The position numbers and the translations under genes are program-made. Below, piece by piece: positions 23,556 through 64,000 of a DNA stretch of 64,000 nucleotides; the stretch's first letter is position 1, and each line of letters begins with the position of its first letter. Where the stretch lies: positions 23,312,001-23,376,000 of the forward strand of contig CM060732.1 in NCBI GenBank assembly GCA_030704615.1, in the 5' to 3' direction. The DNA comes from Takakia lepidozioides. Lineage: Eukaryota; Plantae; Bryophyta. A model generated the notes under the pieces. That model ran no database searches, was not told the origin of the DNA, and worked only from the letters and a program-made list of their open reading frames with translations.

Positions 23556-23715
23556 TTCACTTCCAAATCCTCATCAATGATGTAAACCTGTACAACTTTA
23601 TTTACAGGAAACATGAGGTATTTGAACATATGAGAGAAAAACCCCAAAACCTGGGAAAGAACAAGGGAGGGAGGAAAGGGCAGCAAGCTAAACTAAACTA
23701 TTCAAAATTATCAGT

Positions 23716-24133: not shown

Positions 24134-24301
24134 GTATATCTGACCTCGCTCCTTGTCAATGTCTCGCAATGAAATTCTGTGTGTCCACAGGCATCCGTGT
24201 GCTCGGCATTGAAGCACAGAAATGCTTGGAAGCCACTGCATTGCTGTGAAAGCGAAGTGGGTTCTCACAATCGCACCGCTCCTCTGTCCTGGGGCCCCGC
24301 C

Positions 24302-34646: not shown

Positions 34647-34880
34647 TTTTATTTTTTATTTTTTATTTTTTTATTTTAAAGGAAACCTGGGAGCGACTGC
34701 TCACAATTCAGGCCCTTGAGGAGGGGGAAAAATTAACCCCCTTTCAGATAAGCCACAGGTGGGAAAAGTCACCACCAGACCAGCCGGTCGCGAACAATCC
34801 ACACACCAGGCAGGGCAGCGGGTTTGAACCCCGAACCACCAGGGCGACACACTGTGCACTTACCAGCTGATGTGCCAGGT
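34647..34880 (-). mobile_element. tRNA-derived SINE-like element
   Basis: Minus strand has an A-box-like TGGCACATCAGCTGG (34877-34863), B box GGTTCAAACCC (34830-34820) and an (A5T)n-type tail at ~34680-34647. No TSD recognised. Confidence 0.55.
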
Positions 34881-35014
34881 TTTGCGAGTCAACCAAGCCG
34901 AGCACATTGCTTTTGCTCCAGGAGAGATCGAACTCCTTACAAAGCTTCCTCCGACGTTGCTCCGAAGCTATGGGACAGCTGCAAGAAGAGAAACCCAAGC
35001 CTTGCGCCCCTCAA

Positions 35015-37585
35015 TCATCATATCACCATAAATTTTAAAAAGAGTCCAGTCAGCACTCCTAACGCCCTAATACAACTCCCAACCGAAAACTATGGAATTG
35101 GCTCTAGCCCATTGATCATCTTGTATGCCCGTACACTAGGCACACAATTAAAAGAAGCATTAAACGACCCTGGTCGCCTTGGTATCATCTACCAAGGACT
35201 CCTCAAATTCTTGGCCCTAAATTACAATGGCCTCTACACGCTATCATCCCTGCACCCACAAGCCTGCTTGCACTCCCCCACTGCACGCACACTACTCATC
35301 CTACACCAAATGAAAATCAGTGTACAAACTGACCTACCGGACTACCCTAATACCTCCTTCCACTGGAACGCACCTGGCTCAGAAGTCCTTATCTGTCGCA
35401 ATTCGAAAATTTCTCATCCAAAACAAAGAATCCTCATCCTCACTTACTTCAAAGAGCGTCACATTACCACCCTCACCCAACTCACCACAGCCACAGGTCG
35501 CCGACTTCTAAGGCCCAGTGAATTCACTACTAAATTCTCGCGTGCTACGACCAAAACCAGTCGTTATTTACAGCACCTCCGCACACTCTTTTGCCATCCA
35601 ACTAAAGCCTGCACCCTTCAATGCGACCTTCCCTGCCCCCACTACCCACATACGGCCCAAGACCTGCTCCCCCAGTACAGATCTGCCCCAACTGCCTCCA
35701 TTTATCAAAAACTCAGAACACCGCCTGTCACTAATACTCCCACATACACCGAACCTGACCCTCCTTCTGAAGCACCCGACACTCCAACCAATATGCCAAA
35801 CATCCCCACCTATCCCCCACTATCCCCCGTAGGGACCCCCCCTACCTCCCCACATAACCCCGTTAACCCTAATGTCTTTGTCATTGAAGCCATACTGGGT
35901 GTCAAAACCCAAACGTCAATAGACGCCTTTGGGGCCACCTGCGTTGACACATATTATCACTGCAAATGGGCTGGCTATTCCTCAGAAGACAACACATGGC
36001 AAAAAGAAGACGATCTTTTTGGCCCTCGTGACGATGTGATCCAGACCACAACCTGGCCCTTCTCACCGCCTTCTACAAATATACTAACACCGCCTACCTT
36101 ACACATATCCACCAGCAACATGCCACCCCCGCCCAACCTATAGACAATAGATACATCCACAAACCGATATCGGCCCCCAACGTTCACATATGTATAACTG
36201 AATGCAACCCAGACAAAGATATCAAACATGTTCCACCATTCATCCACATGGGTCCTCGCCTTTCTAAAGTTTATGCTCAGAATGGTCGCTTCATTGGGCT
36301 TATCCCCAACGATAGGTTAACATGGCTATGGGGCAAATACTCTACTCCAAATTGATACACACAATCACTATAACCACCCAAACATGATTTCGCCACAGAA
36401 CTATACTGGCTAATTGACCGTTATCTCAAAGATACTCCTCCCAAAAAGCCACGATCCTTTTCCAGGCTAGAAATGGCATGTGCCCATCATACTCTACCCC
36501 CAGATATTCTAACCTTACTTGTCAATACATTCCAAATTACTCATTCATATTACTCCAACCCACTTACTTGCCCTATGGAACTACACACATTTGTCAGCCC
36601 ACATCAAAAGGACTGTGTCTTCGGTGTCACTGGTGAAGCCACCCAACATGCCTGGGAGGGCCGGGGTTTTTCCCAACCCCCCCTCCGGGCCCATTGCTCA
36701 CGAAGCTCTTCAATGGGCCCGATTCGCAGCTCATTCATCCCTTATGCTTCAACAATCCTCATCCTCACACAACAAAACACACCTAACACATCTCATCCTC
36801 TTTTACGCCTCCTTGCAGGAATTAACTTACTAACCACTATTGACCCGAATCAGCTCAAGTATGTTCACACCCCTCCTCTCCCCAAATATCTCCAACAGAA
36901 GGAACCCACCCTCACCCTCATTCTACATGTTCAACACCCCCTCCATGCCGACATACCCACACCATTCTTTAATGAGCTAGAACAACTACTAACTATAACA
37001 CATAAAGTAAAAGCCACCATTCATCACCCACCTGCCCCCCCCTCCCACAATCACACCTACCACCTTCCCACAACTCAAAACAAACAAAGCCTGGGTCAGG
37101 CGCTACCGCGCCCACACCAGGCCTCGTTAATTGACCCCCTCCCCTCCATTTCCTCAATATACAGGCAAATCACCACCCTTAAATATCCTCCGGCTAACTC
37201 CCACTACACTGACGGATCCCTTAACAAACCTAATGCAGGATACGACATCTATTATGCAGGCACATGGAAAGGGGTTGCCCACATGTTCCTTGGCCCTGCA
37301 ACCATTCTAAGGGCCGAGCTTATGGCCATCCACGATGCTCTCCTCCTACTTGATACCTCCCCCCCCCCATATTTCATCTTCACGGACAGCCTCACCTCAC
37401 TATTTCTTATCAGAAACCACATTTCCCGCCCCTCCTCCCACCACCACCACCCCGATCGCAATCTCATTGCAACCATTGTCAAAGCTGTCACCTCCATAGG
37501 ACACCCAATCTACCTACTTAAAGTCCGCTCACACACTGGTATCCAGGGGAACGAGGAAGCTAACCTCCTCGCACACATTGGGTAG
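35015..37585 (+). mobile_element. 5'-truncated LINE ORF2: post-RT region, chromodomain, N6-adenine-MTase-like segment, RNase H
   Basis: LPTENYGIG (RT thumb-end GGLG-like). Chromodomain ~35877-36020 (FVIEAILG..YYHCKWAGYSSEDNTWQKEDDL). ~36480-36730 reads SNPLTC..FVS..DCVFG..G..WEGRGFS/NPP. RNase H ~37200-37585 (YTDGS, RAELMAI, IFTDS, KVRSHTGIQGNEEAN). Frameshifts present. Confidence 0.82.
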
Positions 37586-42139: not shown

Positions 42140-42958
42140 TTAGGCCCAAAGTGGAAGTTTTGCATATGGATTTGTTGAGGTAAGAGTGCAAATACAAATG
42201 CAAAAGAATTGGAAAATCAAATTCTGAACAATCAACAGAACAGTGGGATCCACGTGCCTACCAAGGTAATCAGGTTCATTTTGTTGTGGGATCCAAACAC
42301 GAGGATCAAGATATCTTCCATACCAGGCCCAGCAGGCATGGTCTCGACCAATAGGCTTATGAGAACACTTTGACCGGCTCTCGCTAATGTAATCAACGAC
42401 TGTTGAAGCTCCAGCCATCTCTGATATATATGGCCACACTACTTTTGTCATATCATCCCGGTCACGCAAGCCGTTTGGTGAAGGCTTGAATGAGAAAGGG
42501 AAGAATCCAGTATTTTGTGGGTTTCGCAGGCCCTTTGATGGCTCATCATCTACAAGAAGTATTTGCCCCTGCGTAGCAAACGGTCTACTAGGGTACTTGG
42601 CAATAACACTTCGAATATCCTTCATGAGATATTTCATCCCGGACCTGATATAACCGGTGGTATCCTTACAATCCTCAGTAGACCATATGAAACAAAACTT
42701 CTTCGTTATTTTCGTGGGGACGAAGCTCTCCAACATCCTACAAAGAACACCTCTATCAGCGCATGACCAAATGACCACGTGAAAATGTTTCAATGCAAGG
42801 TCCAGAAACTCCAAGACTCCAGGCCGAGGCACCACAAATGGTCTATCAGGAACTTGAAGTGTCACATTCCTGAAACGAAATTTCTCCTTAAACAGTTCAC
42901 CACCGATTGGGGGTGGCCGGTAGCAGAGGAGTCCGTTGACACTCAAAATTAACAACAT
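42140..42958 (-). CDS. FCP1/NIF-like HAD phosphatase domain ORF, first catalytic Asp replaced
   Basis: LLILSVNGLL (motif I, D to S), RPGVLEFL, FHVVIWS, KDI, ILLVDDEPSKGLRNP. Intronless across the domain; lies near a CACTA end. Confidence 0.72.
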   Translation of the reverse strand: MLLILSVNGLLCYRPPPIGGELFKEKFRFRNVTLQVPDRPFVVPRPGVLEFLDLALKHFHVVIWSCADRGVLCRMLESFVPTKITKKFCFIWSTEDCKDTTGYIRSGMKYLMKDIRSVIAKYPSRPFATQGQILLVDDEPSKGLRNPQNTGFFPFSFKPSPNGLRDRDDMTKVVWPYISEMAGASTVVDYISESRSKCSHKPIGRDHACWAWYGRYLDPRVWIPQQNEPDYLGRHVDPTVLLIVQNLIFQFFCICICTLTSTNPYAKLPLWA

Positions 42959-43094
42959 CCGTTTCCTCTTCCCCGCTGTTGCATGTAAAGGATGAGAGAC
43001 AAAGTTATCCTGAGCAGGTTAATCACACACTGACATTAGTGTTTCTGCCATGAAAATACCCATGATCCAGAATGATTGAGTGTATGGAAGATCA

Positions 43095-43909: not shown

Positions 43910-44049
43910 TAGCTAGTTTCACACTAGTGGTGAAATAACTTGACAGCTGTCGTACGCATACATATCGCTACACAGCTACATCGCTGTCCAAAACCACACA
44001 ACACATATGCACACCACATACTAGTATACCACTAGTCCAGTACTAGTCC

Positions 44050-44095
44050 AACCACTAGTCCAACCACTAGGCTGCCACTAGGCTGCCACTAGTCA
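44050..44095. repeat. Short CCACTAG-containing tandem repeats in the Gypsy 3' non-coding region
   Basis: ccactagtccaa-ccactaggctg-ccactaggctg-ccactagtc, with further actag units nearby. Confidence 0.7.
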
Positions 44096-44383
44096 GTTGC
44101 TAGGCTGCCCACTATGGCAGTCACTAGTCCACCACAATCGCCTCCCTAGCTGGTGCTTAGGTCCCTCTAAGTCCAGGTAGCCACAAGATGTGATAGTGAC
44201 CGTAGCCTCACTAAGTCCTCCACCACTGTCCCTACTACACTCAAACTCGATAGATCAAGAGGCCGGGTGCAAGAGTTGCCCCAACGTTAGTCGCCGTCTT
44301 GCAACCTGTGAACTTGAACCTGGGATCTCGTGAATTGACTCCTATGAGCTTGGCCTCCTATGTCTTGTTAGCTGCCACTGCCA

Positions 44384-44530
44384 CTATCCCAAGCAGTGTG
44401 GACACAACCAATCTCCATCAGGAACCTTCTCAAGAGGTGGTGTCAAGCATCCCATGTGTCAACCTCTTGAGCATCGATCACACACCAGCATGGTGGCTGC
44501 CCCTTTGGCAGACCCACAGAGCATGCACCT
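44384..44530 (-). other. PHD finger at the integrase C-terminus
   Basis: CMLC..MLVCDRCSRG*HMGCLTPPLEKVPDGDWLCPHCLG* gives C4HC3. The internal TGA (44461-44459) sits at the usual aromatic (W/F/Y) position before the His. Confidence 0.92.
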
Positions 44531-47500
44531 CAAACCTGCAGGTACCACTGCCAAGTTTGGGTCAACTCTGCCATCAACATTGGGAAGGTGACATGGCGCA
44601 CAATTACGCACATGGTCTTTCCAAGTCATGCCATCCCAACCCTCCAAGATCAGGACCCCTGAGGGCAACACATCTCGACCCCTCAGAATAACATGCCCTG
44701 CAATCACATCCAGGGTCGTAGGAGCAGTCTGCTGCAAATAAACATAGTCACTAGGGCTAAACCTCCGAACCCCAGGACGATATCGTCCACCACGTATAGT
44801 GGCATACCTCAACGTATCACGGTGTTGTGCAATGGCAAGGTTCTCAAAAGCCATGGGCATGACTTTCTTGAACAATTCTGCACGCTGATCACATGCACGT
44901 ACCCACACGTCCGGATCGTCAAGGTTAAGGACTTGAGTAGTGTCCCTACAAATGGCTGCAAGCAAATCCGGCTCTCGGCCAAAGAGAAGGAAATATGGTG
45001 AGAAGGAGGCAAGTGATGCTTGTTTGCTGAACCTGTAGCCTATGGCTAACAAAGGCACCTGAAGATCCCAATCTCCTAGGTGTCCCTTCTGCAAGCCATA
45101 CTTGCGCAAACCCCTCTTCACCGTCTGAACAACTCTCTCTGCCAAGCCATCGGCCTCAGGATGATCCCGAGAAGTGGTGCGGTGGTCTATCAAGGTTTTA
45201 TCACACAAAGCCTGAAACTCCCCCAAGAACTCTCTCTCATGGTCCATGAGTACCTCAGCTGGAGCACCGAATCGGCTAAGCACACGATCCAATAATACAT
45301 ACGCAGCCCCCTCACTAGCCTTGTCAGGCAATAGAACCAACTCAATCCACTTGGAGAAGTGCTCCACCATCACCAACACATATCTGTGGTGGCGCATAGT
45401 CAGTGGCAACGGTCTTGCGAAGTCAAGACTCCACCTGTAGCCCAATCCCATGATTGGTAAAGGATGCAACTGTGGTGTAGGGGCGTTGAATGAAGCACGC
45501 ACCCTGTCACACACCATGCACCTAGCCACGAACTGTTGCACCTCTGTATGCATACCACGCCACAAAATACTGCCCCTGCAGTAAACTGTGAGTGCGTCGC
45601 ACTCCAAAATGCCCCAACTCCTCATGGGCATGCCGCACTAACCGTGCACGCTGTGTGGGGTAAGGCATAATCCTCACCCGACCATCCTCCCATACTCAGA
45701 GCAGGTGTATCCCCTCCCACTTGAACCTCTTGGCTCGTTGCAGGATCCGATCCCTCTCCCTGGCAGTCACAGTGGTTGTCGTGTCTCCCGTGCGGAGGTA
45801 GTCCAACACAGCTGAATCCTCATGTATATCTCTGGCACCACCTGGCTCATCACTAGCCTCAGGGTCCTCAGACACTCCGTCTATAGTCATCCCTGTTGTA
45901 GGTCCAACCTGACCTCCCGATGCCAAGATACACAAAAATGCAGATGCGTGCCATCCCGGCACCATCTCCTCGTCCGTCTCACCATGCCACCGAGCTCCAG
46001 TGTCATCCTGTTGGCTCGTGCATGGATTGCGACTCAATCCATCCACATCCCGATTAACCAAACCCGGTCGATGCACAACCTGAAAGTCATACTCCTGGAG
46101 TATGAGTGCCCACCGTGCAAGCTTCCCCGTAAGCTTGTCTGACTCCATCAACCACTTGAGTGGTTGGTGATCCGTGACAAGGGTGAAGAGATTGCCATAT
46201 AGATAGCACCTGAAGTGTGCCACGGCCCACACTGCAGCTAAGCACTCTCCCTCATATGAGCTGTACTTAGCCTCTGCAGCGTTGTTTGAGCGGCTAGCAT
46301 AAGCCACTACGAACTCTCTTCCCTCATCATCCACCTGTGTGAGCACCGCTCCAAGCCCTAGCATGCTCCAATCCGTATGCAGCTGAAAGGGACGCCCCCT
46401 GATAGGTCGTCTCAGGATAGGCGCCGAGGTCAACCTCGCCTTGAGCTCTTGAAAAGCTTGTTCCTGCTCATCTTCCCACTGCCACTCTTGGTCCACCTTG
46501 GTCAGCTTGGTTAGAGCATTTGCAATGGCAGTAAATCCCTTGACAAACCGTCTATAATAGTTTGTCAACCCCATGAAAGCTCAAACTCGGCTCACATCCG
46601 TGGGGCGTGGAATTTGTGCAATGGCCTTTACCTTAGTCTGCTGTACCCCCAATCCTCCAGGATATATCATGTGACTCGGATACTCAATCTGGTTGTGGAA
46701 AAACTTGCACTTCCTCGGATGCAACTTCAATCCGTGCGCTCTCAAGCGCTCAAACATCACCTGTAGGTATCTCTCATGCTCCTCCACCGTACCACTAAAG
46801 ATGATGATGTCATCTATGTAGCACCGAGCAAAGTCCACCCCTGCTTCCTATTCATGACTCTCTGAAACTCTGCAGGAGCGTTCTTAAGCCCAAATGGTAA
46901 GAACCGCCACTGATATAGGCAATCCTTGCCGTGATCATTGTCAATTGATCCCCCAGAATGCCGTCTTCTGTTTGTCCGCCTCCTTGATCGGCAACTGGTG
47001 ATATCCGGATCGTAAATCCAAAGTGCTAAAGACCTTAGCATGCCCGATGGCATCAAAGATCTCATCCGGTGTTGGCATGGCATACTTATCGTACTTGGTC
47101 TGACGATTTACAGGCCAATAATCACCGCACATACGTCTCTCCGTCCAATTGCCATAGACATCCTTCTTGGCTGGCATCACTGTGGCTCAAGCATACTCTC
47201 CACCAGAGAGCTCCACCAAACCAGCCTCCCAAAGATCTTGAGTCCTCATCTGAATCAAAGACCTCTCCATGTCACTATATCTGTAGGGTCTCCGAAAGAT
47301 TGGCGTGTCAGTGGCCAACTCAATACGAATCTCTTGACCCTTCAGTGCTCCCAAGTCCTTCAAATTGAAGGCAAAGCAATTCCTAAAAGCCCTCAGGAAC
47401 CACCATATACGTCGTCTCTCTCCTCCGGTGACAATGGGTCCAATGTCAGGCTCCCAATTGTCCTCCGTAACTGCAACCTTAAGTCCAGTGGGCTTAGAGG

Positions 47501-47819
47501 TAGAGGACGCGTCCAGTGGTTGCTATGTTGCAACCTCTTGAGCAGTACTCCCTGTCTGCTCAGTCAATGACAATGCCTCATCCTGCCCCATCATCTCATC
47601 CTCGAGGACTTCTTCAACCCGAGAAAAATCCCCAACCTCATCCATCGCCGCCGCCTTGGCTGCCAACTCCCTCTGAACCTCGAGCATCTCCCACGTGTGC
47701 CATGGATGCCTGCACCCCGTGGTCGTCTCATGCTCGCCCCCACTCACTGCCTGTACCGTCTCGGTAGGCAGAGAGACCATCGAGGGAAGTGTACTTCGCA
47801 CTCTGCGTTGCTCAGCCAT

Positions 47820-48770
47820 AGCCAAGCTGATAATCCAGGTTAAGCAATTGAGATCCATTGCTTGCCCCAACACCTGACGACGTGATGTCTCAGAAAGAGA
47901 TGGCACCGCCGTGGTACCAGTGGTAAAACCCATTGCCCGCTCACGCTCGTCAGCATCAGGCTCCACTAACTGCTGCAACTGAGCATCCCACAGGAGGCCA
48001 GGTCCACTATCCCGGAAAGCATGCGATCCGGGGAAGCTGAGCAGTGTAGGTAATGCTGCTCGTCGTTGACCCACCTTGTTGACCACTGCCAAAGGCGAAC
48101 GGTCATCATGTCTTACACGCTGAGACTGCCTCCCTGTGTCCAAAATGTTATCCACTGTGAGGTGTGCTGGCTGTTGCACCCCATCAAATGCACGCTTGAG
48201 CAATGCGGGTGGCATCAAGTTAGTCCACCATAGCCGTGGACGATGAGCCCGTGACCCCACTGTAGCTGCATCTACCAACACTGCTGACCCAAGCCACGAC
48301 CGGACTTGATGTACACTGGCCATCACCTTAGCCCGAGAATCGTCCATCAATGGCACATTCTCCAATATGTATGCTGGAGATACAGCTTGATGAAGCTGCA
48401 AGTGGCGCAAAACCCGCACCATCTCCCAAAACAGACCCGACCTCGAGTCTCGCAATCCATTGCCATGCCCGGCTGATGAATGCCCTTGGCAGGGCCAACC
48501 TACCACTACCAGATCAATGGAGCCAACCCACTCCAAATCCTGCGCCCCCAGCAACGAAATGTCTGCTGGCAAGGCTTGTTGATATCCACGAACTACAGAT
48601 ACCGGCAACAACTCAGGGTACTGCTGCACCAACTGAGCAACATAGCAAAGTGAAACGCGTCGTGCAATCTCATCCCTCTCCACATACAGGTAACGCCAAA
48701 CTCGTATACCTGCCTGTAATACAGCAGCCAATCCGATACTGATCCCGCCAAACAAGTCCAGAAAACAAAT
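47820..48770 (-). other. C5-cytosine DNA methyltransferase domain (DNMT3-like) within the Gypsy polyprotein
   Basis: Motif I FLDLFGGISIG, II YVERD, III DISLL, IV GWPCQG (PCQ 48494-48486), V GLFWE, VI ENV, VIII AHRPRLWWTN, IX ERERAMGF, X RRQVLGQAM. All lie in one open frame (ORF 47523-50582). Confidence 0.95.
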
Positions 48771-51469
48771 GCCTTCATCCGGATACTGCCACACAATAGG
48801 TGTGGTATCCAATGGTGACAACTGAGGTGGTCCTGGTGCAATCCCCGCACTCTCCTCCTCTCCTGATGGTACAAAAGCCTCCACCCAGGCTTGTTGCACC
48901 CGTCGATCAGCAATCCGCTGCAAATCCTTGCTCGTGCCCCACAATGGAGTCTGAGCAACCATGGCAGGCAACTCCGCCATACCATACATGTCATCCTGCT
49001 CTCCTGGAGGTGTGTCATCCTCTGAATGAGCGTTGCCCTCTAGCAACTCTCCAGGCCAAGTCACTGCAGCTGTGAATGCTGCTAGTGTCAGTATCTTGCC
49101 CCGCTGGGCAACCGCAACTCCTCCTATGAACGTCACAAGGAGTTGTACACGCCGGCCCTCCCCTGACTGCCATCTGGGCCTATAGGAAGCTGACTCCTCC
49201 CAAAAATCCAGGGTGAAGCCCATAAGGTACAACACTGCCCCACCAACCAGGACATCGTACGAGACCGCGTCTGTCACAATGGCCTTGGCTCGCATCACTG
49301 AGCCATCTGTAGGGTGATCCGGCCGTAGTCTGATAGCCAACTCACGCCGTGTCATGCCCCGAGCCTGCTCCAATCCTCCCAGAGACGTCTGTATCTGGAA
49401 AGGACAAGGCTCCATATCCGTCTCCGTGATGCCCAAGCCTGCAATAGCAGCTCTGCCCAGCATCAATGGCTGAGCTCCCAAGTCCAACAAGACCCGCAGT
49501 GGCCGGTACCTCTTGCCTGCCGGTCCACTCAAACAGAAAATGTCATCTTGGTTGTCTAACATGACAACTCCAGGTGTCACCATGGTGCGCTCAATGGCTG
49601 GCCTAGCTGGCAGCTCCATCAACCTGGCAGCTGCAGCTTGCCATGGCGCCGTCGTGGCAGTCTTGACCCTCAAATCCGAGGATCCCTCTGGCACTACACC
49701 TCCCACTATCTCCGCAGAAGATGAAGTAACCTCCTCACTCTCACAGAGTGTAGCTGCCAGCCTGAACACCTCAGCTGGTCTTACCCCCGGCGTCGCAATC
49801 ATGGTAGCCGAGAACAATGGAGCCTGGCACACAGATGTGGCCGCTCTCAGTAGCACACTAATTGCCGTAGCCTTGGCAACACTAGGTAGTGGTGCTGCCC
49901 GTGTAGCTCTCCCAAATGGCATAGTAACCTCCGCCTCAGTAACAGTCGGGTGAGAACTAGGTGCCATGGATGGCGTCGACACTATCTCCACCAATGTGAA
50001 TGACTGAGGAAGCCTAGCCTGATGGCTTGCCTCCCCACGCAGTGGATCCAACTCCACCTCTGAACCTCGTGGCTCAGGAACTCGTGTTGCTCCTCGGGTC
50101 ATGGCTGCAGCAGACTCCACCTGCACTAGTGGTAGTGCTGCTCCGCACATGAATCCCATGCCTCCCATATCTCCTCCCTCAGGAGCAGGAGGTGGACCAT
50201 CCGGCCTTGGATCCGATACCACCTGAGCTGTAGCCATGGTAGCGAGCCTATATTCTAGCTGCTGAAGCCGGTTGGCCATGCCTTGGTCAACACCCTGACC
50301 TCCGTGTCCTTGGCCATGTTGAGCTTGCTCTTGGCCTGCACTTTGTGCCTGGCCACCTCGTCCTCTCTGGGCTGCTCCACCTCGCCCTCGGCCACCATTG
50401 TTCCCTTGGAACTGGCCTGGGCGCAACTCAGGATGCAAACCATAACATTGGGCCTCTCCATGCCCGTGCTTGCCACAATGCCCACACTGCCCACACTGCA
50501 ACTGTGCAGGCTGTGCATGTGCCGGCCCTTTGCCTCCCTCTGGGCAATCCTTCTTGACATGGGGTCCTCCACATTCCAACACACCACCTCAGCCCGTTGT
50601 TGGCCTGCAAATGAAGAAAGAGACCCCTGCATCTGTGGTCCTCTCTGTCCTTCCCTGAGCTTACCCACTAGTATCGCTAGTGCTCGAACCGGCACTGTCC
50701 CTAGCAACTAGTGGCACCTCCGTGTTGACAAACTGTCACTCAACCGGTCATGAACATGTCCCTAACCCCCTCTCCACAAGGTAACCGGGTAAAGAACCTG
50801 TTGCGGCTTATGGTTTGGAATACTAGGTTCCTAACATAGCCTATACCTACACCTGCATCCACCGCAAGCACTCATATGGTTGGCTGGTCATCACCTCCAA
50901 CCTCACCATAGGAGAAACAATGATGGTCTGACTGGTCATCACCCCAGCCTCACCATCGACAGCATACTCTAGGACTGGCCGGTGATCAAATCCGGACCAA
51001 TCACCTATAAAAACAAGGCCCACACAAAACTAACATGGCGCACAGTCAAGCATGCAGGTATGGAGGGGATCCAAACACAAGAAATCAGAACGACAACTCC
51101 CCCACACCAAAAACAACTCCACGGTGTTGTTCCTGCAAGGACATCCCAGCCCAAACCCGGACTGACTCTTGCTTCCACCTACGGAAAGGTCTTGGCATAA
51201 TAAGAGGATGGAAAACTATGAGGAAGAGAAGCTAAAGCAATGCCTAACCCAGCATGCCCTCACCCCAATACTCTTTTTCTCCTCTCTTCCCTCACTTGCA
51301 TGACCATGGAAATATCATGAAGATACTCCTCAAACCACCCTCCACGAGCTTTAAAATTTGGCCTTCAAGACCGCATGCTAGTCCTTAGGCAGTCCACCAT
51401 TGCCTCCACGAGTCAGCACAGGCTGTCCACAGGTCAACACGGGCCACCACAGACCAGCACACGCCCACA

Positions 51470-52310
51470 TAGATCACTAATCACAGCCGTCACAGCCCCA
51501 CACAGGCCACAACCTGTCACAGCCCATCACAACCCCAAAGGCCACAGACACAGCCTGTCACAGCCCGTCACAGCCCCATCCATGGCCACTCATGGCAGTT
51601 TAGCCATTTCTCCAAGGGTTTAGCCATGCCAAGCTAGGGTTTGTGTCTCTTGGACTCTAGGCTTCTTTGCACCGAGCTATGGCGGCTGTGAAGAAATCAG
51701 CAAGGTATTCTTGCTCTTTTGGCTCCCACACACCACCAATAGTAGCCGTAAGCCATGAGGAAGATGGTTGCCACAAACCAAGCCTTCTTTCTCACTTAGA
51801 CTCCCCAAACACGCCACTAAACTCAATGGCAAACAACCAAGCCTTGCTGGTTTCCATCCCTTGTGAGCACTCATTCAAGCGTTTTCCTTGGCCATAACAT
51901 CTGTCTTAGAGCCTATTTCAGCCCCCTACACTTGTCACTTCAAGAGCCATGCTCTATCTAGGCTTGAGGTTGAAACCCCACCTCACATATGCCCTACAAG
52001 TGCTTTTCTTTCACCCAAGTGGGAACCAACCCTAGCCCTTCCATTCTAGCTCTCTAAAGCTTGAAAACAAGAGCCTCAATGGGCTGAAGGCATGCTCCAC
52101 ACATGCCCCACTCTCAGCATAAGAGAATCAGCCCCTTTGCTTCATTTCTTGCACTCCCAAACCTGAAAGCACAAGCCTTCAACAGGCTGAAAGCATGCTC
52201 CACACATGCATTGCCCTCACATAAGGGAAGTCAGCCCTTTCCTCTTCCTTGCTTGCCCTCCAACTTGAAGATGGAAGCTTCAATGAGCTGAATACATGCT
52301 CCACACATGC
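51470..52310. repeat. Internal repeats in the presumed long 5' LTR/leader
   Basis: CACAGCC tandem units ~51480-51580; three copies of gctgaa..catgctccacacatgc near 52083, 52186 and 52287. Confidence 0.65.
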
Positions 52311-55310
52311 AACCTCTTCACACAAGAGGTATCAGCCCCCTATCTTGGCTCCTTGGCTCCTTGATGCTCTCTAAGACAAGACTAAGCACTCCACAGCCTT
52401 TGCCAAGCTCTTGAAACCCTAAGGCTTACATTTCCAGCCACAAGACACTCTTCTTGTGGTGCAAGGGCTCTTCTTCCAAGCTCTGAAACCCTAGTTGTAG
52501 CACTTGTGTTTGCTTGAGAATGAGAGAAACCAGGTTGTTATGCAAAGAGCACTGTGGAGCTCATGCTTGTTAGAAGCAGAGGTGATGTGGGTTACAAGAT
52601 GGTTGACCTTGGCATTCGATCTTCAGCTTCAGAGATGAAAGCACCATGCTGCAGGTAATTCCAGAGCACCTTGATGGTTTCAGATTTTGTACATGCATGA
52701 GCAAGCACGATTGGGAAGAGGACCAGCCAAGAGCAGGTTAGAGTGGGTTTGATGGCAAAGCTGAGAACTGGACTTGGGAATGCGAGCTTTCATTGTGTGA
52801 AGGATTGCAAGACCAAGCGAAAGGGCTGATTTGGCTTGGGGCAAATCAGTGCACTTTGTGGAGTATATTGAGATTGGGTTTCAATCTCAAGCTTCAATAT
52901 TGAGAGGGCTCTTGTCATGGCAAGAGCAGGGCTAGAATAGGAGCTAAGAGGTGCGGCAAGGCCATGGGATGTGCACCTAACTCGTATCTGGCACTCACAC
53001 ATACGAGCTCATTTTTCTCGAGTGATAAAGAAGACGAATACAAGCACAAGCTCATGCGAGCTCATAAAGCTGAAGCATAAACTCATGCATATATAAACTC
53101 ATCACTCAAATACAAGTCAAGCCAAGTGCACCCCACGCCATGGGGAATCCACACTACGACGCCATAGCTAGGCGCGGTGAGGCTCAACTCGAGAAAGATG
53201 AGCCTCCCGCGCTTGCCGTGAAGATAACCACTCCAGGGCCTAAATCTGCCTTGACCCCTGGATTGACACTTGGGCCAATCCCAAATGTCAATATGTAAAA
53301 GCTAGCTATTTCCTAGCTAGTTTCACACTAGTGGTGAAATAACTTGACATGGCATATGTGACTTCATCTGACAGTCTTTTGTGATGACGCATTCGGCTCC
53401 TGTCCTCTGCCTTATCGACACATGGATATTGACATATTGAAGGAGGCGATTGGGACTCCAGTTGTGTGGGACGTCTTCTGTGTTCACCCGCATTAGAAAA
53501 TAGTGATTATCAAGGACAAAGCACTGAAAGCAATGAAATTCCGTCCAACAGTGAGACTGAAGAGGATCTGGCTGTAGGTCTTGGGAGAGATTGTTGGAGA
53601 AACTTGCAGTGTCTTCTTCTTGGGGAGGACGGAAACGCCCTGTTCGAAGGCCGAATTCAGGCATGCATTCCTAACGAGATCATTCTGAATGACAAACTCG
53701 GAGAGGACGATGTTGGGGTTTTGGTCACCAAAACAATCTCTGGAGAATCCGGTTCTCTGATGTCCATTGTGAAATGGCCGTTAACAAAAACAAGACTTCT
53801 TGAAAATGACCGGATACTCTCCGTTGATCTCGAAAATTACCTAAATCATGCACTGACATGGAGAATGATGACCATGGTACAGGCGTAAAGAAAGCAACAT
53901 ACAAGCATTTTACTAGGAAGAAGAATCCATCCAATATGGAGGACTCAAAAAAATGCAAGAAAAATCTTACTTTGGAGGAAGTGAGGTCGGTGAGCAGCAA
54001 ACCTTGCTGCAAGCTTCAATGCTGCCAGTATTTTGATTGGAGAAAAACCTTGGCAATTCGTACTGCATTTTGGGGTTCGTCATTCGATGAGAGGAGAGAA
54101 CTTGGATTGAATGTTTCAAAACGACTTCATATTATGGAAGGGGCATCGCGTAGGTCGTATGTTATGATAGAAGGTGTTGATGTTTGTGAGAAAACATGGT
54201 GGATAATACACGGAATTGGAAGGTCAACGTACATGGAGTACAGAAAGCTCAGTAAAGAAGGTTGTTTGTCATCTTTCCACGGAAATCGTGGCGTCAAGCG
54301 GCCTCGACCGGGGACACTCCAGGCAGAAGTGAACATTATGTCCATTATCAATGCCAATACTGATCTTATGCCTCACAAAACACGTTGCATTGGAGAGGGA
54401 CGTCGGGATACTTTGAGAATTTTGCCACCTGAAATGAACTAGAAGAGAATTCGAGATGAGTCCAACGAGGTGACTTTTATTCGTTGTCCCATTTTCTTTT
54501 TTCAAAATACTGTGGCCGATTTTATTCTTGTTGATGCCATCATGCTTTCTTGTTCTTCCACTTTGTAGAATCTCCACTGCCCAGTGGACGTTGACATTAT
54601 TGGGGAGTTGGGGTGCAGACGAACAGACTTCTCGGTTTGAAAAGAGTCTCGCAGCCAGCTGTAAGCCGTATACGGAATCGAATATTTCCTAGCGTGGAGG
54701 TTCGGAAAACCGGAAGCACCTTTGCTAAGTGCACAGAATGCAAGATGTTGAAGGACTTGATCAAGAAGTCAATTAAGAGGAGTTCCGAATAGGTCGCACA
54801 TAAGCGGGCGTTTGATCTACACTTGAGGCATCAAGAGTCATGCAGAAGGCTGTACCATAGCTGGAGGAATGGGTCCGTTATGATTCTGGAGGAGTTCCTG
54901 TGTATTATTCACGATAAGATGGATCATAGGAAAACGACTATTCCAAGACTACGGACGACGATCAAGATGGTCTCGGGATTGGGTCAGTTGCCTCACTACA
55001 ACACACCATATGTAATTTCGACGATTTAATTTGACGCTGGCGTTGACTGTTGTCACTTTCGACTGTTCCAACCATTTTGCAGTAAAAAATTATATTAAAA
55101 TATTCAAGGTGCTAGACAACCGCGAAAATTTTGACAGTAGTGAGAGATTTTGACTACCTAAAACTGAGACAACCAGTTAAGCAATGGCATGTGTAATCAC
55201 AATATATAAACTATATATAGCAATATATACGTGGATAATAAGAAGTAAAAACATTTAACTATTTTTTCACTGACCCAGCACATTAATAGTAAACTAATCG
55301 TGTGCTGGTT

Positions 55311-55552: not shown

Positions 55553-57442
55553 AAAATTAAATGGATGGATGGATAGATTGATGGAAAACCCAAAATCCAT
55601 CCATCTACGATACATTCATCCAAATAATTCAAAATGAATGTAGGGTTGCGGGATTGCGTTCAGCGATGAGTAAGTTATGGGACTTGATCGTTTTGCTTTG
55701 TTTGCGTGGGAGGATCTGCAGGATATGCATAGCTTGGGTGGACAACCGCAATCGCAAGGAGTGGCTTTTCTTAAATTACGATGTGAAGATGTTTGTCCAT
55801 CCTGCAAATGTGGGCTCTTAGTACCATGATTTGGTATTCTTCCTGATGTTTATAACGTTCTTGGGAGAGTCGGCTTGGTCTTAGCAGGCCGTGTTTCAAT
55901 CTCCGCCCGCTCAGCTGCATCGTGGTGGTTCTCGCAGACCAATCCTCTCGCAGACCAATCCGACATTACCTGACTACAGACACAAGCAGCACACACAAGA
56001 GGTGGTCAGTCAAATCCTCGATGGGTCATGACACAAGGTCGAGGACAATGTGGTGAGGGCACCTTCTTCGACGTCTTTCAGCCTGTTTTGCCCGCTCATC
56101 AGATTCGGCCCTGAATTTGCAGCACGGAGCAGAGCAGGCATGAATTTTGTAAAGATCCTTCATGATGGTGCGACAACCGCAATCGCAAGGTGTGGCTTTT
56201 TCTTAATGTACGATGTGAAGAAGTTTGTCCATCATGTAAATGTGGGCTGTTGGCTCCTGTTAGTACCATGATTTGGTATTCTTCCTGATGTTTACCAGGT
56301 TCTTGGGAGAGAGATTGGTCTTAGCAGGCCGTGTTTCAATCTCTGCTCAGCTGCACCGTGGTTGTTCTCACAAACCAATCCGACAGTTCCTGACGATGGA
56401 CACAAGCAGCACACACAAGAGGATCTTTGGGTTGATGGTCTGTCAAATCCTCCATGGGTCATGACACAAGGTCAAGGTCGACAATGTGGTGAGGGCACCT
56501 TCTTCTTCAACCTATTTCTGCCTGTTTTACCCTCTCATCAGACTCGGCCCTGGGATGCATATTGAATTCTGTAAGTTAGCTCGTTGGGTGGATCTATGGT
56601 GGTTAGGAGTGACTTTGACAAATTACTGCCGATGTGGCAGCAGGAAAGTATCCAAAAACAGATAACATAGATTAGGAGAAGCTCGTTGGTGGATATATGG
56701 TGGTTTTGGAGTGATTTTGACATGTTACTGTAGGTAGGGTTAGGGCGTTAGTGTCAGCTGCTAGCTGCAGCAAGGCAAGGATGTGTGCATGATTTGTGCA
56801 GAGGTCTGGATAGCTAAAGGAGTAGGGATAGAGTGTGGGTCCAGATTCATCCAAGAGGGCCGAATTTCAAGCTCCAGATTACCTATGATTCCCTGTGGAA
56901 GGATAGCTACACGAAACCTGCATGGGTAGATGGTGAACTGGAAGCCACAGCACCAGCGGTTCAATTGATAAAATCAGGCACTGCTAATGAAGGTACCTTC
57001 TTCAACAGATTTCACCCTGTTTTTCCCTCTCATCAGAATTGGCCCTAAATTTTCATGTTGAATTCTGATACTTTTCTGACCCCAGGCAATGGCGGGACAA
57101 TCAAGGCAAAAAGGTGAATGCTTGTTGGATTACAAAGAGTAGCAGATGCAATTGACCATAGGAACTAGTGTGATAAGTTGAGTTAGGTGTTTCCTAGAAC
57201 AAATCTAGGCTGTCATTGTCAGGTGCTAGCAGCAAGGCAAGGATGCAGTATGTATGATTTGTGCAGAGGCATGGATAGCTGAAGGAGCAGGGATAGAGTG
57301 TGGGTCCAGGTTCATCCAAGAGGGCTGGACTTCAAGCTCCAGATTACCTATGATTCCATGTGGATCAATAGCTACAAGAAACCTGCATGGGTAGATGGTC
57401 AAGTAAAGGTAGCAGCTGCAGCGGCACAGTTGATAAAATCAC

Positions 57443-58700
57443 GCACCTCGACCATGACCACAGCTTCTGAAAGAGGATCAAGAGAGGGAGTCCACAATGC
57501 CTCTTCTGCTGGGCATGTGAAGATGCTTTGTGAGGCAGACAGACTGACAGAGGCTCTACAACTTTAAACTAACAAGGCATTTCAGTAGATTCAGATACGT
57601 CTTCTGTCTCTTGCATAAGTGCATCAAGATGAAAGGTCTGGAAGCTGGAAACAGGTGCACACTCACATTATCCAAAGTGATTAACGCCAAATGTTTTCTC
57701 AACACCCTTGTCAACATGTATGTTAAGTGTGGGAGCATCATGGATGCTCACCAGGTTTTCCACAGAATGTGTGTGATTACAATGCTTATGCAAGCCTGGC
57801 AGCCCTGGAAAAGGTCAAAGAGGTCTATGTTGACATTGTCAAAGCTGGAATTGTACCAGATGTCATTCTGTACTCTTCCCTGGTGGACATGTATGCCCAA
57901 TGTGGGTGCATTGAGGATGCAAAGCAAGGAACTTATGTGTACTCTGTTTATATACTGGGTTGGCAGGGAGGCTTTGGAGATTGTGAATGGGTGATGCTTG
58001 CAGGGTATGCATAGCAGGGACATGGTATGGAGGCTTTGGAGACCTATGATCAAATATTGATGGGGGAAGGGGTGAAGCCCAACCACATCACGTTGCAGCA
58101 TACTGGTACTTCACAGCCATGGCGGCTCTCTCAACCCCTCCATTTTTTTTTCTTTTGGTTTTTTTGGCGCTGGGAGAGAGCAGCAGCTCTGCTGTCTCCT
58201 TCCCCTTGCTTATGCCGATCGTTAAAGGGGAAATTGTCATTCTGAACTCTGCCTTGGTGGACATGTATGACAAATGTGGGTGCAGCAAGCCTGATGTGAA
58301 GGGAGAGTTTGACAATATGGCTGAACGAGTTGAGGTATTTTGGAGTGCCATGATTGCAAGGTATGTGCAGCATGGGTATGGGATTAAGGCTTTGGAAACA
58401 TAAGAGCAAATGATGTGGGAAGGGATGAAGCCGGACCAGGCCGTCATGTTCATTTGTTTTTGTAATATGCATATGCGAGCCTAGCAGCCCTGGGAAGGGG
58501 CAAAGAGGTTTATGGTGACACTATCCAAGCTGGAATTGTACCAGATGTCATTCTCAACATTCCCCTGGTGTACATCTATGTCAAATGTGAGCCTGGCAGC
58601 CATCAAAAGGGCACAAAGGTCCATGATGACATCGTCAAAGCTGGAGTTGTCACTCTAAACACTGCCTTGGTGGATATGTATTTCAAGGCAGCCCTGGAAG
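57443..58700 (+). pseudogene. PLS-PPR fragments carried inside the CACTA element
   Basis: TSTMTTASERGSREGVHN..GHVKMLCEA leader, then NTLVNMYVKCGSIMDAHQVF, ASLAALEKVKEVYVDIVKAGIVPDVILYSSLVDMYAQCGCIEDAK, KPNHIT and others, with stops and frameshifts. Confidence 0.88.
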
Positions 58701-61700
58701 TGGATGTCACTTTGGGTGACAAGGTAGCTGGCACCACCATTCTCTGGAACTACCTGAATTCATTCTCAAAATGATTTCTAATGTTCTCTTGACATGTCCA
58801 CGATAGTGCTGGACCTAGCTACACAGCAGATTATCCTTACTTAGTGACTTCAGTTGGATATAAAACCAGTTTTGAGCCATCCAAATGTTTTTGGTTCCGA
58901 CCTGTATTTGTATTCTATGTTTAGTTGTATTTGTAATATATTTTCAATGCAGTGCAGCGAATCAAAAAATTTAAATATAATATCCACTAATTCACATACA
59001 TACAGATATAAACTAAAAGTAAATAAAAAAAAACGAAATAACAGTAATTAAAAAAACCAAATATTAAATAAAAAGCCTCCCAATTCATATATATATTATA
59101 TTTATATGTATATATGTATATACACCTCCAGAGTGAAACATATTTACTAAAATGTGTCCTCTTTTACTGCTTCACAGTAGAATATTACAATATACAAAGT
59201 CAAGCAAACTCACTATCACTGATTTACAGTCAAACCGTATACTAAACATCATGGAACATAGTCAATATGTTCCACTTCAGTTAAACCACTTTACTACACG
59301 TCATGCATCCACGTCACTCTGCCCTTAAGCCACTCACTACACGTCATGCATCCACCTTATAATTCAGTTAAACCACTTTACTACATGTCATAGCCATGTC
59401 GCATCCACGTCGCATCCACGTCGTACTGTGCTGCCTACACGTCACCCCCTAGGTTTTACTGTCACATTTCAGTGTCAGAACCTGGCATCTGGATTCGACT
59501 GCTTGACTGAAACGACTTGACCTTTGTCACGCATGTTCGACTATGGAGGCTGGAAGTAAAAATGTCGCAAATGACTCAAAAATGAGTCAAATACAGAGTC
59601 GAAAAGCCCAGCTTGTATTGTAGTGCCTGTCTCATTGACAGGAATGGTTACGCATGAACACGGTGATGGAGCTTACGCTCAATTTTCTCTTGAGTTCTGG
59701 AAGGGCAATTCAAACTTCACAATTGGGTCGCTGGCTCGGTGCCTGCGCCAACTGGAAAAGCCGACATGCCGGGAATCCAGGAACATTTTCGACACTGAAG
59801 TTCAAAATGATTTTTTTGAAACGCTCATGAGAGGTAAATCGAGATGTTTGGAGGCTCTGAAACCCTATAGGCCGCAAGATAAACGTGGTGCTTGACCACT
59901 TCCTAGACGACTTTATTTGCAGATGGACAACTCCTCCAAGGACAATAAGAACAGATGGATGCTTGCTTTCCTATCCCTTCTCACTGCCAAAGATGTCTTT
60001 GAAGAGATCCAGCTTGGTTTTCTCATGGTCGGGCACACCCATGAGGATATTGACGGATTCTTTAGCTATGTCTCGAAGAAGCTAAAGAAACGCAGCACCT
60101 ACATTTTTCCGGATTTGATGAGGTCATTCATGATCTCCCAAGATATGCAATTCATTCCTCAAATCATTCAGGAGGTTCCCGACTTCAAGAAGTTTGTTAA
60201 GGGTTGAATTCTTGATGGAAATGAGGCTTTGGTCGGGATCTCAGAGATGCACGTCTTTCGGTTTTTTAATGATGCGGATGACTAGCCCGTTATGAAGTAC
60301 AAGAAGTCAGCTACTGATTCGGAGTGGCTTCCTACAGACTCCAGCGTTAAGATGTGGAAGTCCAATCTTGATGGGACTCCAAATCTCCCAGATGCCGTTC
60401 CAAGAAGACCGATATGGGGAGTTGGGGATGACTTCTCCGAAAAACAGTCATTCATAAAAATGGTATTAAGAAATACAGAGGATCATTACCGGGGTGTAAT
60501 GGAACAATACGACCAATGGGGAAATATTCTCGCCGAACTTGATAAGCCAATGCAGGACATTCCTGATCGTATTCAGCTTCTTGAGGGATTCTGGCCGAAA
60601 ACAAATTGGTCCTCAAACCATCGAAGGGATGGCATCCAGCCATCGATACTGGAAGATATGGAAGATGAGGATGAAGTTCCAGAACCTTACTGTGGCCCTA
60701 GGTGCGAGCGTCCAAGGATACCCTTGAATCCGTTCAAGGATATTGAGAAATTCCCCTTACATTTTTACATTCTACGGAGGTGAGTCGTCCATATTTGTTT
60801 CTCTCTTTCTATCCTAAACCCTTCTCCGAGTCGCCACAAACTTGGACCTTATTGCACTTAATATATCTAGTTACACCCCAAACCTTATTTTACTACCCTA
60901 GTAGGTCATCTTCCTAATGTTTCAAGCTATTTTAATATTTTACTGCCCTTCTCACACCCAAAACATCATTCCAATGGCATTGTCTATGAATATTGTGCTT
61001 GTTAACATGAAGATTCAATCAAAATTACTATCAACTTATATCGAGTATGGTAGAGTATGAGTGGGGAATTAGCACAACTCTTTCATGATTAACTACTGGT
61101 AGAGTCTAGAGTCGTCCACTAAATTAGCCTGCTTCACATACTCAGTGGAGCTATTGATTTGTCCTTCTACAGTCTTGGTTAGTCAACAAACCAACCATTA
61201 TAGACGTCATCGATCTTCTTTGACGGAAACACTTAATGAAGAGATATGGGTAGAGGGAACCCTGCAAAAAATGTACGCCGAGCTATAAAGGTTCAGATAG
61301 GCTTATGTGACCTGCGTCGAAAGGTGGTTCACTTGGGTAAAGTGACATTTACTACAATTGGATCAAAACAAATATGAGGGCAACTCGACATGTTCAAGCA
61401 CTTCGTTGAACTGTAGAAGCGGTGCCCGACGAACAAAAACTCCATTTTTTCAAATTGTGGTGGTATGGGAGTCCGTAGACATTTTCAGGTCTACAATTTC
61501 CGAGGCAAGTTCTGTCCTTATTGGACCCAAGTCTCCCCTTTATCCTCCGGGCATAATGATGTGGCCCCTTGCCGCCCATATGCATCAATCCATTTTTTTT
61601 TCCTCTTTTATTTATTTATTTATTAAGAAAGATAAAAAACACTTGAGAGTTGTAAAACCAGATTCTCGCCCACCCTGTTATTCATCTTCTTCTAGGGGTA

Positions 61701-62659
61701 TTGAGCTATCACGGGGATGTAAGCTCGGTAAAGCAGGCTAGCGAGATAGGCAGGATCCAACGGAGAGGAGTCAGAATCATTCAAAACTAGCAGTACATCC
61801 TAACTCACACCTTCTTCATCCAAACCTTGCACACATGTACACTAGGGTTAACACACCAAACGTACACAGCCGCCTTAAGCATCGTGCTGATCCCTTTTAT
61901 AAATGAAGGCCCACAATCTTATCCAACAGAGTGGCAAGCCCTGATTGGTTGTTTGGATTCTAGTCGGGTGCCTATCCAGATAGGACGCCACCTCATTCTA
62001 ATTTAGAGATAAGCTAGCTGTTAATATAAGACAACTCTTAGTTAAAAATAGATTGTTTCCAGCTGGTTTCATCCAAGCCCTTTTCAAACGGTCATTCATC
62101 CAGCGTCTGTCCATCCAAATGTCGAAAAGGTAGGTAGAGCGAATCTAGCCATTACATATGTAAAACCTCCTGGCACACAGAGGAGCGAGCTCCAGCGAGC
62201 TATCTAACAAAACACTATGCTCAAAACAGGGAGCAGTGTTGCCCGAGGTCACACCAAGATGGGATGAAAATACCTCAACAAGGAAAACCTTGCTCTGCAA
62301 TTTGAGCGAAGGACAAAACCTTATTGTGGAAAAACCCCATCTTGTGAGGTGTGCAACCTGGAGAACTACAAAGATAAAACAGATGGATCCTAGGTAGGGA
62401 GCAGCTGAATAAAAAATGAAGTGTCACGAGTAAGAGTGAGTAGTCTAGGTGACAAGTGAATCAGAGTCAAGTCGAGTGCGCTTCTTTGGAGTTAAAACCA
62501 CATGACAATTCTCCACGTTGAGACAAGTCAAATCAAACTGCAGCTTAGAAGGGACAAGTTGTGAAACATGAACAGTCCCTGCAATCTCCGCTGTAGAAGA
62601 ATGTTGGGAAAGGAGACGGTACTGTCGACTAGGCAAAATCGCATGTACCAGATAAGGCC

Positions 62660-64000
62660 CATCGATTCACATCTTGGACTTGGTGACCTGTTTGCCAGGC
62701 TGCAAGCGAACACAAACAGTCTGGCCTAGAGAAAAAAATTCAAAGTAAACAACCCTACAGTTATAGTTTCTAGCTTGAGAACCTTGAGAAACCTGAATGT
62801 TATGTTTAGCAGTCTCTAACAAACGCAAACGATGAGCAGTGAGTTGAGTAAGAAATTCTTCCCATATGATGGGCTCCTCACCCTGAGTTTGAAGCACAAG
62901 GACATGAAGAGAGGTGCGAGCCTTGCGGCCATACAATAATTCAAAAGGAGAAAAGCGAGTGTTGGCATGCACCGAGGTCCTGTAAGCACAGAGTAACATC
63001 CCATTCTTCAATGAGAGCTCCGTTCTTTTCTAACAACTGGCACATGGTTTTGTTGAACCTCTCTGTAAGCCCGTTGCACTAGGGGTTGTAGGGAGCAGTC
63101 AAGCTATGCTTGACATCTAAATTAAAGCACACAACCTCCATCAGCTGGCTACAAAACTCCCTACCCTGATCAGTTAAAATTTCAAGGGGACAACCATGGC
63201 ATAGCAGGATTTCATCAAAGAAGAACTGAACCACCTCATCACTATCCTTAGCAACCAATGGTCGGATCTCAACCCACTTAGACAGGTAATCAGTAGCCAC
63301 ACCAATATTGTAACTATTGCCCTTAGTCGTAGTTTTGAGGGGGCCGACATGATCAAGACCAACTCGGGCAAACATCTCAATCACCGAAATTGGTTGTAAT
63401 TTAAGAGGAGCTACGGTCCTAGGCAGAAGTGTTTTGGACTTATATGGAACACACTTGGAAATGAAATCCGCCACATCCTTAGTTAACCCCTTCCAATGGT
63501 ACTTTTCCTGGAGTCTCTTGACAGATTTGTCGACTCCTAAATGACCATCATATAGTGAGCTATGGTAAAGCTCAAGCAACGCAGGCATAGAGCTCCTAGT
63601 AGGGACCTCCACGACAGTCTCTTGCCCATGAACATGAACTACCTTAAGCAACTTACCTTCATGCTCCCTATGAGAGGGGAGATGATAGTTTACTTGCCTG
63701 AGGCGACGGGAAGAGAGGCCCGACAGATGAGTGTTGGTCTTACACTTCTGGAGGAGGCCTTGGTGAAGTAGGTCTTCCATGTTTACAGCTGCCATAGCCA
63801 GGCCTTGGGTTAGTGTGAGCAGAAAGGAGTGTCCGCCTCAGTGATCTCCATGGTAAGGCTTCAAGCTCAACTGAATGACAAGGGTGACTTCATGAAGATG
63901 CAACCAAGGACAATGAAGCACATAAGCAGATTTCCCTAAGGAGAGGATTCAGTACAAAACCGGAACTAGGAATGACCTGCTAAGAGACGTCATCCACTCA
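62660..64000 (-). mobile_element. Second Ty3/Gypsy element: integrase remnant, continues beyond the window
   Basis: HSSLYDGHLGVDKS..YHWKGL..FISKC, RVGLDHVGPL, TDYLSKWVE, ILTDQGREF, PYNP*CNGLTERFN, FSPFELLYGR. The downstream ~61700-62450 looks LTR/UTR-like but its limits are unresolved. Confidence 0.88.

Follow-up and report, generated by a model that had tools for sequence, protein, structure and literature searches.

A Gypsy-type element carrying its own methyltransferase

The stretch analysed here, 64,000 nucleotides of Takakia lepidozioides contig CM060732.1 (positions 23,312,001 to 23,376,000; hereafter the window), holds at 43910-53349 a minus-strand Ty3/Gypsy-type retroelement that carries a DNMT3-like C5 cytosine methyltransferase (DNMT). 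A first reading of the letters alone, the sequence-only reading, had described such an element, and protease, reverse transcriptase (RT), RNase H and DDE integrase do indeed follow one another in Gypsy order. The methyltransferase lies between protease and RT as proposed, with a protease-like region upstream and RT, RNase H, integrase and a PHD finger downstream. A stop-free frame of 1021 amino acids (50588-47523, minus strand) takes in zinc-knuckle remnants, the protease-like region and the methyltransferase. We regard the family assignment and this anatomy as highly probable.

The methyltransferase domain (47820-48782, minus strand) is complete, with its PCQ and ENV motifs intact, and PF00145 matches it within the 1021-residue frame (E 1.8e-11). 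Among solved structures, DNMT3A/B are closest by both sequence and fold: DNMT3A was the top relative by sequence (E 4.5e-8), with a collinear alignment that extends from motif I as far as the ER.R..GF / R...LG stretch at the C-terminus, and ranked first in Foldseek (E 2.3e-19) when a predicted model (pLDDT 95.7) served as query. DRM2 aligned to query residues 19-144 only, and there to its C-terminal part, so the domain order is unpermuted; assignment to plant DRM was rejected, as the circularly permuted motifs of that family are not found. By sequence and modelled fold, then, the domain is DNMT3-like, which bears out the earlier reading on completeness, type and motif order alike.

To assess constraint, we compared the window with the best 80 of 144 related loci. 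Two families, each in many copies, account for most of these, and some loci recur from one assembly to another; for that reason the 80 loci count as about three lineages with DNA. Family 1, which accounts for most loci, is Sphagnum-like (its integrase stretch is 100% identical over 141 amino acids to a Sphagnum fallax protein); family 2 is degraded and distant. The median pN of the DNMT was 0.215 at a pS of 0.736 (70 of the 80 loci), an intermediate constraint between RT (0.164) and protease (0.298), with RNase H at 0.134 and integrase at 0.169. Median dN/dS was 0.09 in 59 unsaturated pairs, a rough figure with dS near saturation; close family-1 copies compared with one another gave ratios of 0.39-1.1, the range to be expected once copies are dead. 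In an alignment of 91 sequences, invariance reaches at least 90% at PCQ, at ENV and at the motif VIII arginine. Such patterns of substitution indicate that the DNMT is under purifying selection.

A conserved stop behind the methyltransferase

The sequence-only reading ran the frame from the methyltransferase through a TAG (47525-47523) and a TGA (47189-47187) directly into an RT starting at 47180, and placed the domain inside Pol. The frame does pass both stops, but RT homology starts near 47330. Likewise, the domain is an integral part of the lineage and not a later insertion, but a place inside Pol is not supported, because a conserved TAG ends the Gag-protease open reading frame (ORF). The TGA is private to the window copy, and nearly all sister-copy depth differs at 47188. 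The TAG is absent from the 40 variant positions listed, beyond which there are 1179 more, and this bears neither way on the window's own family.

The conserved stop (47517-47525, minus strand) reads TAG CAA CCA in the window, an exact fit to the CARYYA context. A CARYYA hexamer after a stop is the readthrough signal of the tobacco mosaic virus type (PMC4132726). In family 1, the junction that corresponds to the window TAG carries a stop in 52 of 53 copies (TAG in 39, TAA in 13; the remaining copy has GAG), and CAACCC ATG nearly always stands directly 3' of it. Family 2, for which 19 loci were examined, has a stop in eight of the nine copies whose junction was found; the next hexamer is CAATCA (5), CAATTA (1) or AAATCA (3), so CAA-YYA is exact in six of these copies as well. 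At synonymous sites the window differs from the loci almost to saturation (median pS 0.71-0.77) and the flanking linker protein has diverged, while stop-Gln-Pro was kept. We infer from this that selection has maintained the shared stop-CAA.

Among protein relatives, the ORF ends 82 amino acids after the domain in seven Marchantia-cluster proteins and 84 amino acids after it in three Calypogeia-cluster proteins. Overall, 44 of 60 proteins with the protease-DNMT layout stop within 186 amino acids of the domain, without RT, and the Klebsormidium nitens protein GAQ93235 terminates just past its DNMT. Because three divergent families keep the TAG and ORFs from Marchantia and Calypogeia stop there as well, we conclude that the DNMT closes ORF1 (Gag-protease-DNMT); its placing within Pol finds no support. 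The enzyme is thereby likely to be made at the level of Gag. Structures predicted after the stop had no folding advantage over shuffled sequences (z -0.6 to 0.7, together with a hairpin before repeat B, described below).

Relatives, ends and surroundings of the element

The observed relatives place this kind of element in land plants. Land-plant names are attached to 19 of 59 longer homologs (17 Marchantia polymorpha, one Calypogeia fissa, one Sphagnum fallax) and to 13 of the best 120 of 277 near-length matches (four Calypogeia, four M. polymorpha, one M. paleacea, one Riccia and three Sphagnum). No vascular-plant name appears among the matches listed, most of which are unnamed, both searches having scored top candidates only. 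An exhaustive search returned 253 clusters (50% identity, E up to 1e-30), and of the 20 looked up, six were from Closterium, one from K. nitens (GAQ93235) and one from Scenedesmus. The DNMT occupies the same position in the relatives from Marchantia, Calypogeia, Riccia, Sphagnum, Closterium and K. nitens. Liverwort and moss relatives thus share the layout, as expected of the streptophyte lineage persisting in land plants that the sequence-only reading had suggested.

Two layouts exist among 131 long matches, with the DNMT after protease or before RT in 54, and after RNase H or before integrase in 73. A DNMT tree of 52 rows, chosen from 215 full-length domains, splits the two layouts at 99/98 (unrooted, no host DNMT3). 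All protease-DNMT rows, including K. nitens, fall on one side of that branch; their deep order is not settled, and the K. nitens DNMT is not the sister of the window's. The window belongs to an 11-row group with Marchantia and Calypogeia (100/99), and the RT tree gives the same grouping (100; unrooted, no K. nitens RT, no outgroup). The second layout, RT-RNase H-DNMT-integrase-PHD in one long ORF, was seen in P0240/P0370 (Scenedesmus sp. PABB004) and in unnamed proteins (P0032, P0034, P0036, P0037, P0043 and others); only one of its clusters is named, a chlorophyte, and the parts of the literature covered do not mention it. One protein labelled as bacterial (P0131) nests among element rows and is likely a mis-binned contig, while viral contigs gave a single weak match (31%) among 41 candidates.

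Very many contigs from public DNA runs map to the element (94,338 in run X1). Depth over the DNMT bins was of the same order as over the RT and integrase bins and far above the flanks in three DNA runs, although such depth is not a copy number. Since the DNMT bins are as deep as those of RT and integrase, sister copies carry the DNMT too; it was found in many of them, and its absence from sister copies, which would have made it a peculiarity of this locus, is ruled out.

The canonical two-long-terminal-repeat (two-LTR) layout of Ty3/Gypsy elements was not found here; the lineage has split direct repeats instead. Relatives have the order A-coding-B-A-B, complete in L049, L053 and L059 and with the 3' B-A-B in L008, L014 and L051; their repeat A is about 340 nucleotides (nt) long and starts TGTCA, and their repeat B is about 118 nt long and ends CGACA. 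In the window, A lies at 53349-53024, B at 44132-43946, and 36 nt of the second A follow, so that copies of a 36-nt perfect repeat stand at both edges of 43910-53349 (start of A; truncated second A). In sister contigs the end of A runs directly into the start of B. The B-A junction of the window is the palindrome GACAGCTGTC, i.e. CA-nn-TG, which resembles a circle junction and likely templates both integrase ends. Among relatives we found TG..CA termini and a 4-bp target duplication at five of five distinct sites (CATA, TCTC, TGTT, TACA, TGTG), as expected of a DDE integrase; the final A-B is absent at three of the five.

The three copies without the final A-B have the short form A-coding-B (L019, L039, L071). 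Because L039 shares its right flank with L051, a B-A-B form (95-96%), these are explained equally well by recombination or assembly collapse and by a second integration product. No TGG-type primer-binding site was seen by eye after A in the window or in L053. The hairpin before repeat B folds no better than shuffles, and the single two-sided change that distinguishes the window from family 1 is too little to support it. Inside A1, at 53300-53267 (minus strand), short inverted repeats (TTGACA-TTTGGG...CCCAA-GTGTCAA) echo the element's first bases and form a candidate hairpin.

The window copy itself is decayed and dead, and its right end is truncated. On the minus strand it begins with repeat A1 (53024-53349; first bases TGTCA), the left end of the element, which is identical over 36 nt to 43910-43945 and weakly similar to repeat A of L053; in sister copies a contig end lies loose at 53349, and joints fall at 53023-53025. 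A 2.4-kb leader follows (50621-53023), with a 101-103-nt tandem repeat at 52062-52339. The capsid-coding part of gag is not detectable in the window (the Gag profile gave 315 bits in L006, 125 in L079 and nothing here). Sister contigs cover the leader, yet the window copy is without capsid coding; its family may be partly non-autonomous, or this copy may have suffered a deletion. A Gag C-terminal remnant with two zinc-knuckle-like motifs (50400-50620) matches residues 293-418 of a Marchantia ORF1 by tblastn and has a frameshift near 50590. The aspartic protease domain (49152-49571) was recognized by alignment of its DLG motif to the DSG/DTG motif of relatives; Pfam Asp_protease_2 matched in relatives P0298, P0086 and P0384, and the domain scan gave no Pfam match for this region of the window copy.

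Downstream of the conserved stop, RT (YIDD) and RNase H (46041-47330) are broken by the stops at 47189-47187 and 46583-46581 and by a frameshifted stretch near 46945-46835. The integrase zinc finger and DDE core (44999-45637; PF17921, PF00665) have a frameshift near 45565, and the C-terminal PHD finger (44393-44542; PF00628, E 9e-13) contains one internal stop, read as X. The lesions of this copy fall in RT, the RNase H-integrase linker, PHD and gag. Blocks of 3' untranslated sequence (44131-44295), 83-88% kept with the Sphagnum-like family, end in a purine-rich tract beside repeat B1 (43946-44132), which ends CGACA-GC and is delimited by A-B joints in sister copies. The first 36 nt of A2 (43910-43945) come last; the remainder of A2 and B2 is missing, and no matching target duplication was found at this 3'-truncated end. 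In the ORFs scanned there was no match to a Dam domain or to a tyrosine recombinase, an rve integrase being found instead, and the window holds no tRNA genes.

The surroundings are a mixture of repeats and gene-like fragments. A plus-strand LINE-like fragment at 34752-37585 has RNase H at its end and a weak PCIF1_WW match (E 0.001), with a chromodomain ORF upstream. Transposon-like DUF7869 fragments lie at 59575-60204, within a plus-strand stretch at 59575-60783; the plus-strand ORFs at 53433-54442, next to the element's left end, may belong to a repeat of similar kind that the element entered. Also on the plus strand are two mutually similar clusters of degenerate P-L-S pentatricopeptide repeat (PPR) fragments (21200-23570 and 56780-58770); PPR proteins of the PLS type are associated with land plants. 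Exon-like stretches at 1100-4700 and 24300-28240 (plus strand) suggest an F-box/leucine-rich-repeat gene (weak PF00646) and a gene that we take to be CAAX-protease-like, two single exons of which had no Pfam match. On the minus strand there is a NIF-like phosphatase ORF (42140-43018) and an unrelated Gypsy integrase fragment (62450-63837).

A model for the methyltransferase and its alternatives

DNMT-bearing retroelements were known from charophytes, as the sequence-only reading stated: KnitGypsy-Dnmt3 has been published from K. nitens, and in the passages covered de Mendoza et al. (2018; PMC5890265) describe the kind in that alga only, with DIRS-like repeats. It resembles the present element in its Gypsy domains with DDE integrase, its intronless, unpermuted DNMT3-like domain, its DIRS-like repeats and its purifying selection, and GAQ93235 has the same zinc knuckle-protease-DNMT order. 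The present element differs in occurring in liverworts and mosses, in very many copies, and in the place of the DNMT, which that paper puts "in the Pol ORF" and which here ends ORF1 at a readthrough-like stop; 4-bp target duplications and TG..CA ends are shown for the present lineage. SymbioDIRS-Dnmt3 of dinoflagellates (PMC5890265) shares the DNMT3-type domain and the A-coding-B-A-B repeats but has a tyrosine recombinase, whereas a DDE integrase and target duplications are found here; membership in DIRS/PAT was rejected on the rve integrase and the lack of a tyrosine recombinase match in the ORFs scanned.

Other systems are more distant. The EpiLTRs/DAM-LTRs (bioRxiv 10.64898/2026.05.21.726589) are likewise of LTR type and combine a methyltransferase with a chromatin reader, but theirs is a DNMT whose sister is DNMT4 and which comes together with DAM and a chromodomain, in contrast to the DNMT3-like domain and PHD found here; DAM-LTRs are reported absent from Streptophyta (same preprint). 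One ENA protein, P0053, has PF00145 and the Dam family PF05869 together, which recalls EpiLTRs. Troyka (PMC12440569) has a Gypsy-like domain order and unusual ends; we rejected it as a match, its CG..CG ends, 3-bp duplications and animal-only range contrasting with TG..CA, 4 bp and split repeats here. The copia element SIRE1 uses a CARYYA-type motif. Plant-virus UAG-CARYYA readthrough (PMC4132726) has the same stop followed by CAA-YYA; the stop here differs in separating Gag-protease-DNMT from RT, and its readthrough is predicted from sequence.

We found no description of such elements from embryophytes in full-text literature searches, in which the name Gypsy-DNMT3 occurred in two papers, in keeping with what the sequence-only reading supposed, although subscription papers, Repbase or supplementary trees may list bryophyte copies. 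Retrotransposon DNMT3 is attributed to "streptophytes", with no land plant named in the passages covered, by PMC12344493 (citing the 2018 paper) and by bioRxiv 10.64898/2026.05.21.726589, which uses the wording "streptophytes (Gypsy-DNMT3)". The passages covered in PMC5784723, PMC10952607, PMC6453930, PMC11982613 and PMC9477723 do not mention such elements, and the Marchantia inventory in PMC5784723 lists five host methyltransferases without them. The present element is a land-plant form of a kind that is known but has been little studied, and two of its design features are unreported: a conserved readthrough-type stop that puts the enzyme with Gag, and split repeats with integrase-type duplications.

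We propose that ORF1 would yield Gag-protease-methyltransferase in bulk, ending at the conserved stop, and that low-rate readthrough would add RT-RNase H-integrase-PHD. The protease would free the DNMT inside the particle, where the enzyme, packaged in bulk, would methylate the new complementary DNA (cDNA) before or at integration. A copy arriving pre-methylated might evade non-self detection or set its own chromatin, and the PHD finger may guide the choice of insertion site. Related SymbioDIRS-Dnmt3 domains methylate CG in yeast (PMC5890265). Judged on domain order, stop context and constraint, we hold the chain from a Gag-level DNMT through stop readthrough and protease release to cDNA methylation to be somewhat better than an even proposition.

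Several observations weigh against this model. The stop is not universal, as 15 of the 60 protease-DNMT proteins continue into RT; Closterium P0269 and some unnamed proteins from metagenomes are among them, with a continuous frame. The family-1 hexamer CAACCC is one base off CARYYA, and an in-frame ATG 6-12 nt past the stop in both moss families permits reinitiation. The KnitGypsy-Dnmt3 domain gave no methylation in yeast, a result called inconclusive there (PMC5890265). The element's CpG observed/expected ratio (0.25-0.63) shows no deficit relative to a LINE (0.56) or host gene (0.45) nearby, and CpG/CHG depletion was rejected as a self-methylation footprint, not being distinctive in the element. 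Both the enzyme activity and the translation of the element are predictions.

The same division of ORFs could thus be served by reinitiation, or by a separate or spliced transcript for Pol. The ATG stands directly past CAACCC in 52 of 53 family-1 copies and four codons past the stop in all nine family-2 copies, and in five gene models from databases the DNMT is connected to Pol sequence farther downstream, with the linker skipped. However, the window has CTG at the ATG position, its next in-frame ATG lying inside RT homology, and CAA is kept in all three lineages. The gene models, from Marchantia and Sphagnum, use five different joins and so look like prediction artefacts, and reinitiation would require another route for Pol into the particle. 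We therefore consider this route unlikely and prefer readthrough. Equally unlikely, in our estimate, is that the DNMT was kept for a different role: methylating the chromatin of the host or the site of insertion in trans, silencing older copies, or serving as a non-catalytic binder of nucleic acid or of host DNMT3. The lack of methylation by the K. nitens domain in yeast and the lack of special CpG loss would suit this, high expression with Gag fits a trans role too, and such alternatives are raised in the discussion of PMC5890265. The near-invariance of PCQ, ENV and the motif VIII arginine argues for catalysis, and fusion to Gag-protease would put the DNMT in the particle where cDNA forms, in line with cDNA methylation.

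Two further explanations concern the element's origin. Were the window an algal or contaminant contig, it would add nothing to the land-plant range; we think this very improbable, as the element's DNMT and RT fall among copies from liverworts and mosses, its flanks hold the P-L-S pattern PPR fragments and exon-like stretches of F-box and CAAX-protease-like genes, and one of the runs that contain it is labelled plant metagenome, while the presence of the family in land plants rests on named proteins regardless of the window. That this copy or its family captured a host DNMT3 in a single event has next to no probability. The case against it is indirect, the tree having no host DNMT3 rows: the same position recurs in Klebsormidium, Closterium, liverwort and moss elements, RT and DNMT trees group them similarly, and the domain spans 253 clusters.

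Why a transposon would carry an enzyme that normally silences it is a question that has stalled on algae that are hard to manipulate. M. polymorpha, a genetically tractable land plant with methylome data, holds full-length Gag-protease-DNMT frames with PCQ intact (e.g. Mp5g06330, Mp5g06860, Mp4g09160, MpVg00370), which makes function testable, and the conserved stop predicts Gag-level amounts of enzyme, a concrete design feature open to test. Because of their split-repeat ends, such elements would easily be missed by two-LTR finders. More speculatively, and with the balance tilted somewhat against it, an old green-plant-wide lineage of split-repeat integrase elements may have retained an enzyme of the DNMT3 type all the way from chlorophytes, where it lies between RNase H and integrase, by way of charophytes to mosses and liverworts, where it follows the protease. 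In land plants a leaky stop would then load hundreds of copies of the enzyme into each particle, so that new copies would be methylated on arrival, and bryophyte epigenomes may receive an unrecognised de novo methyltransferase from abundant families.

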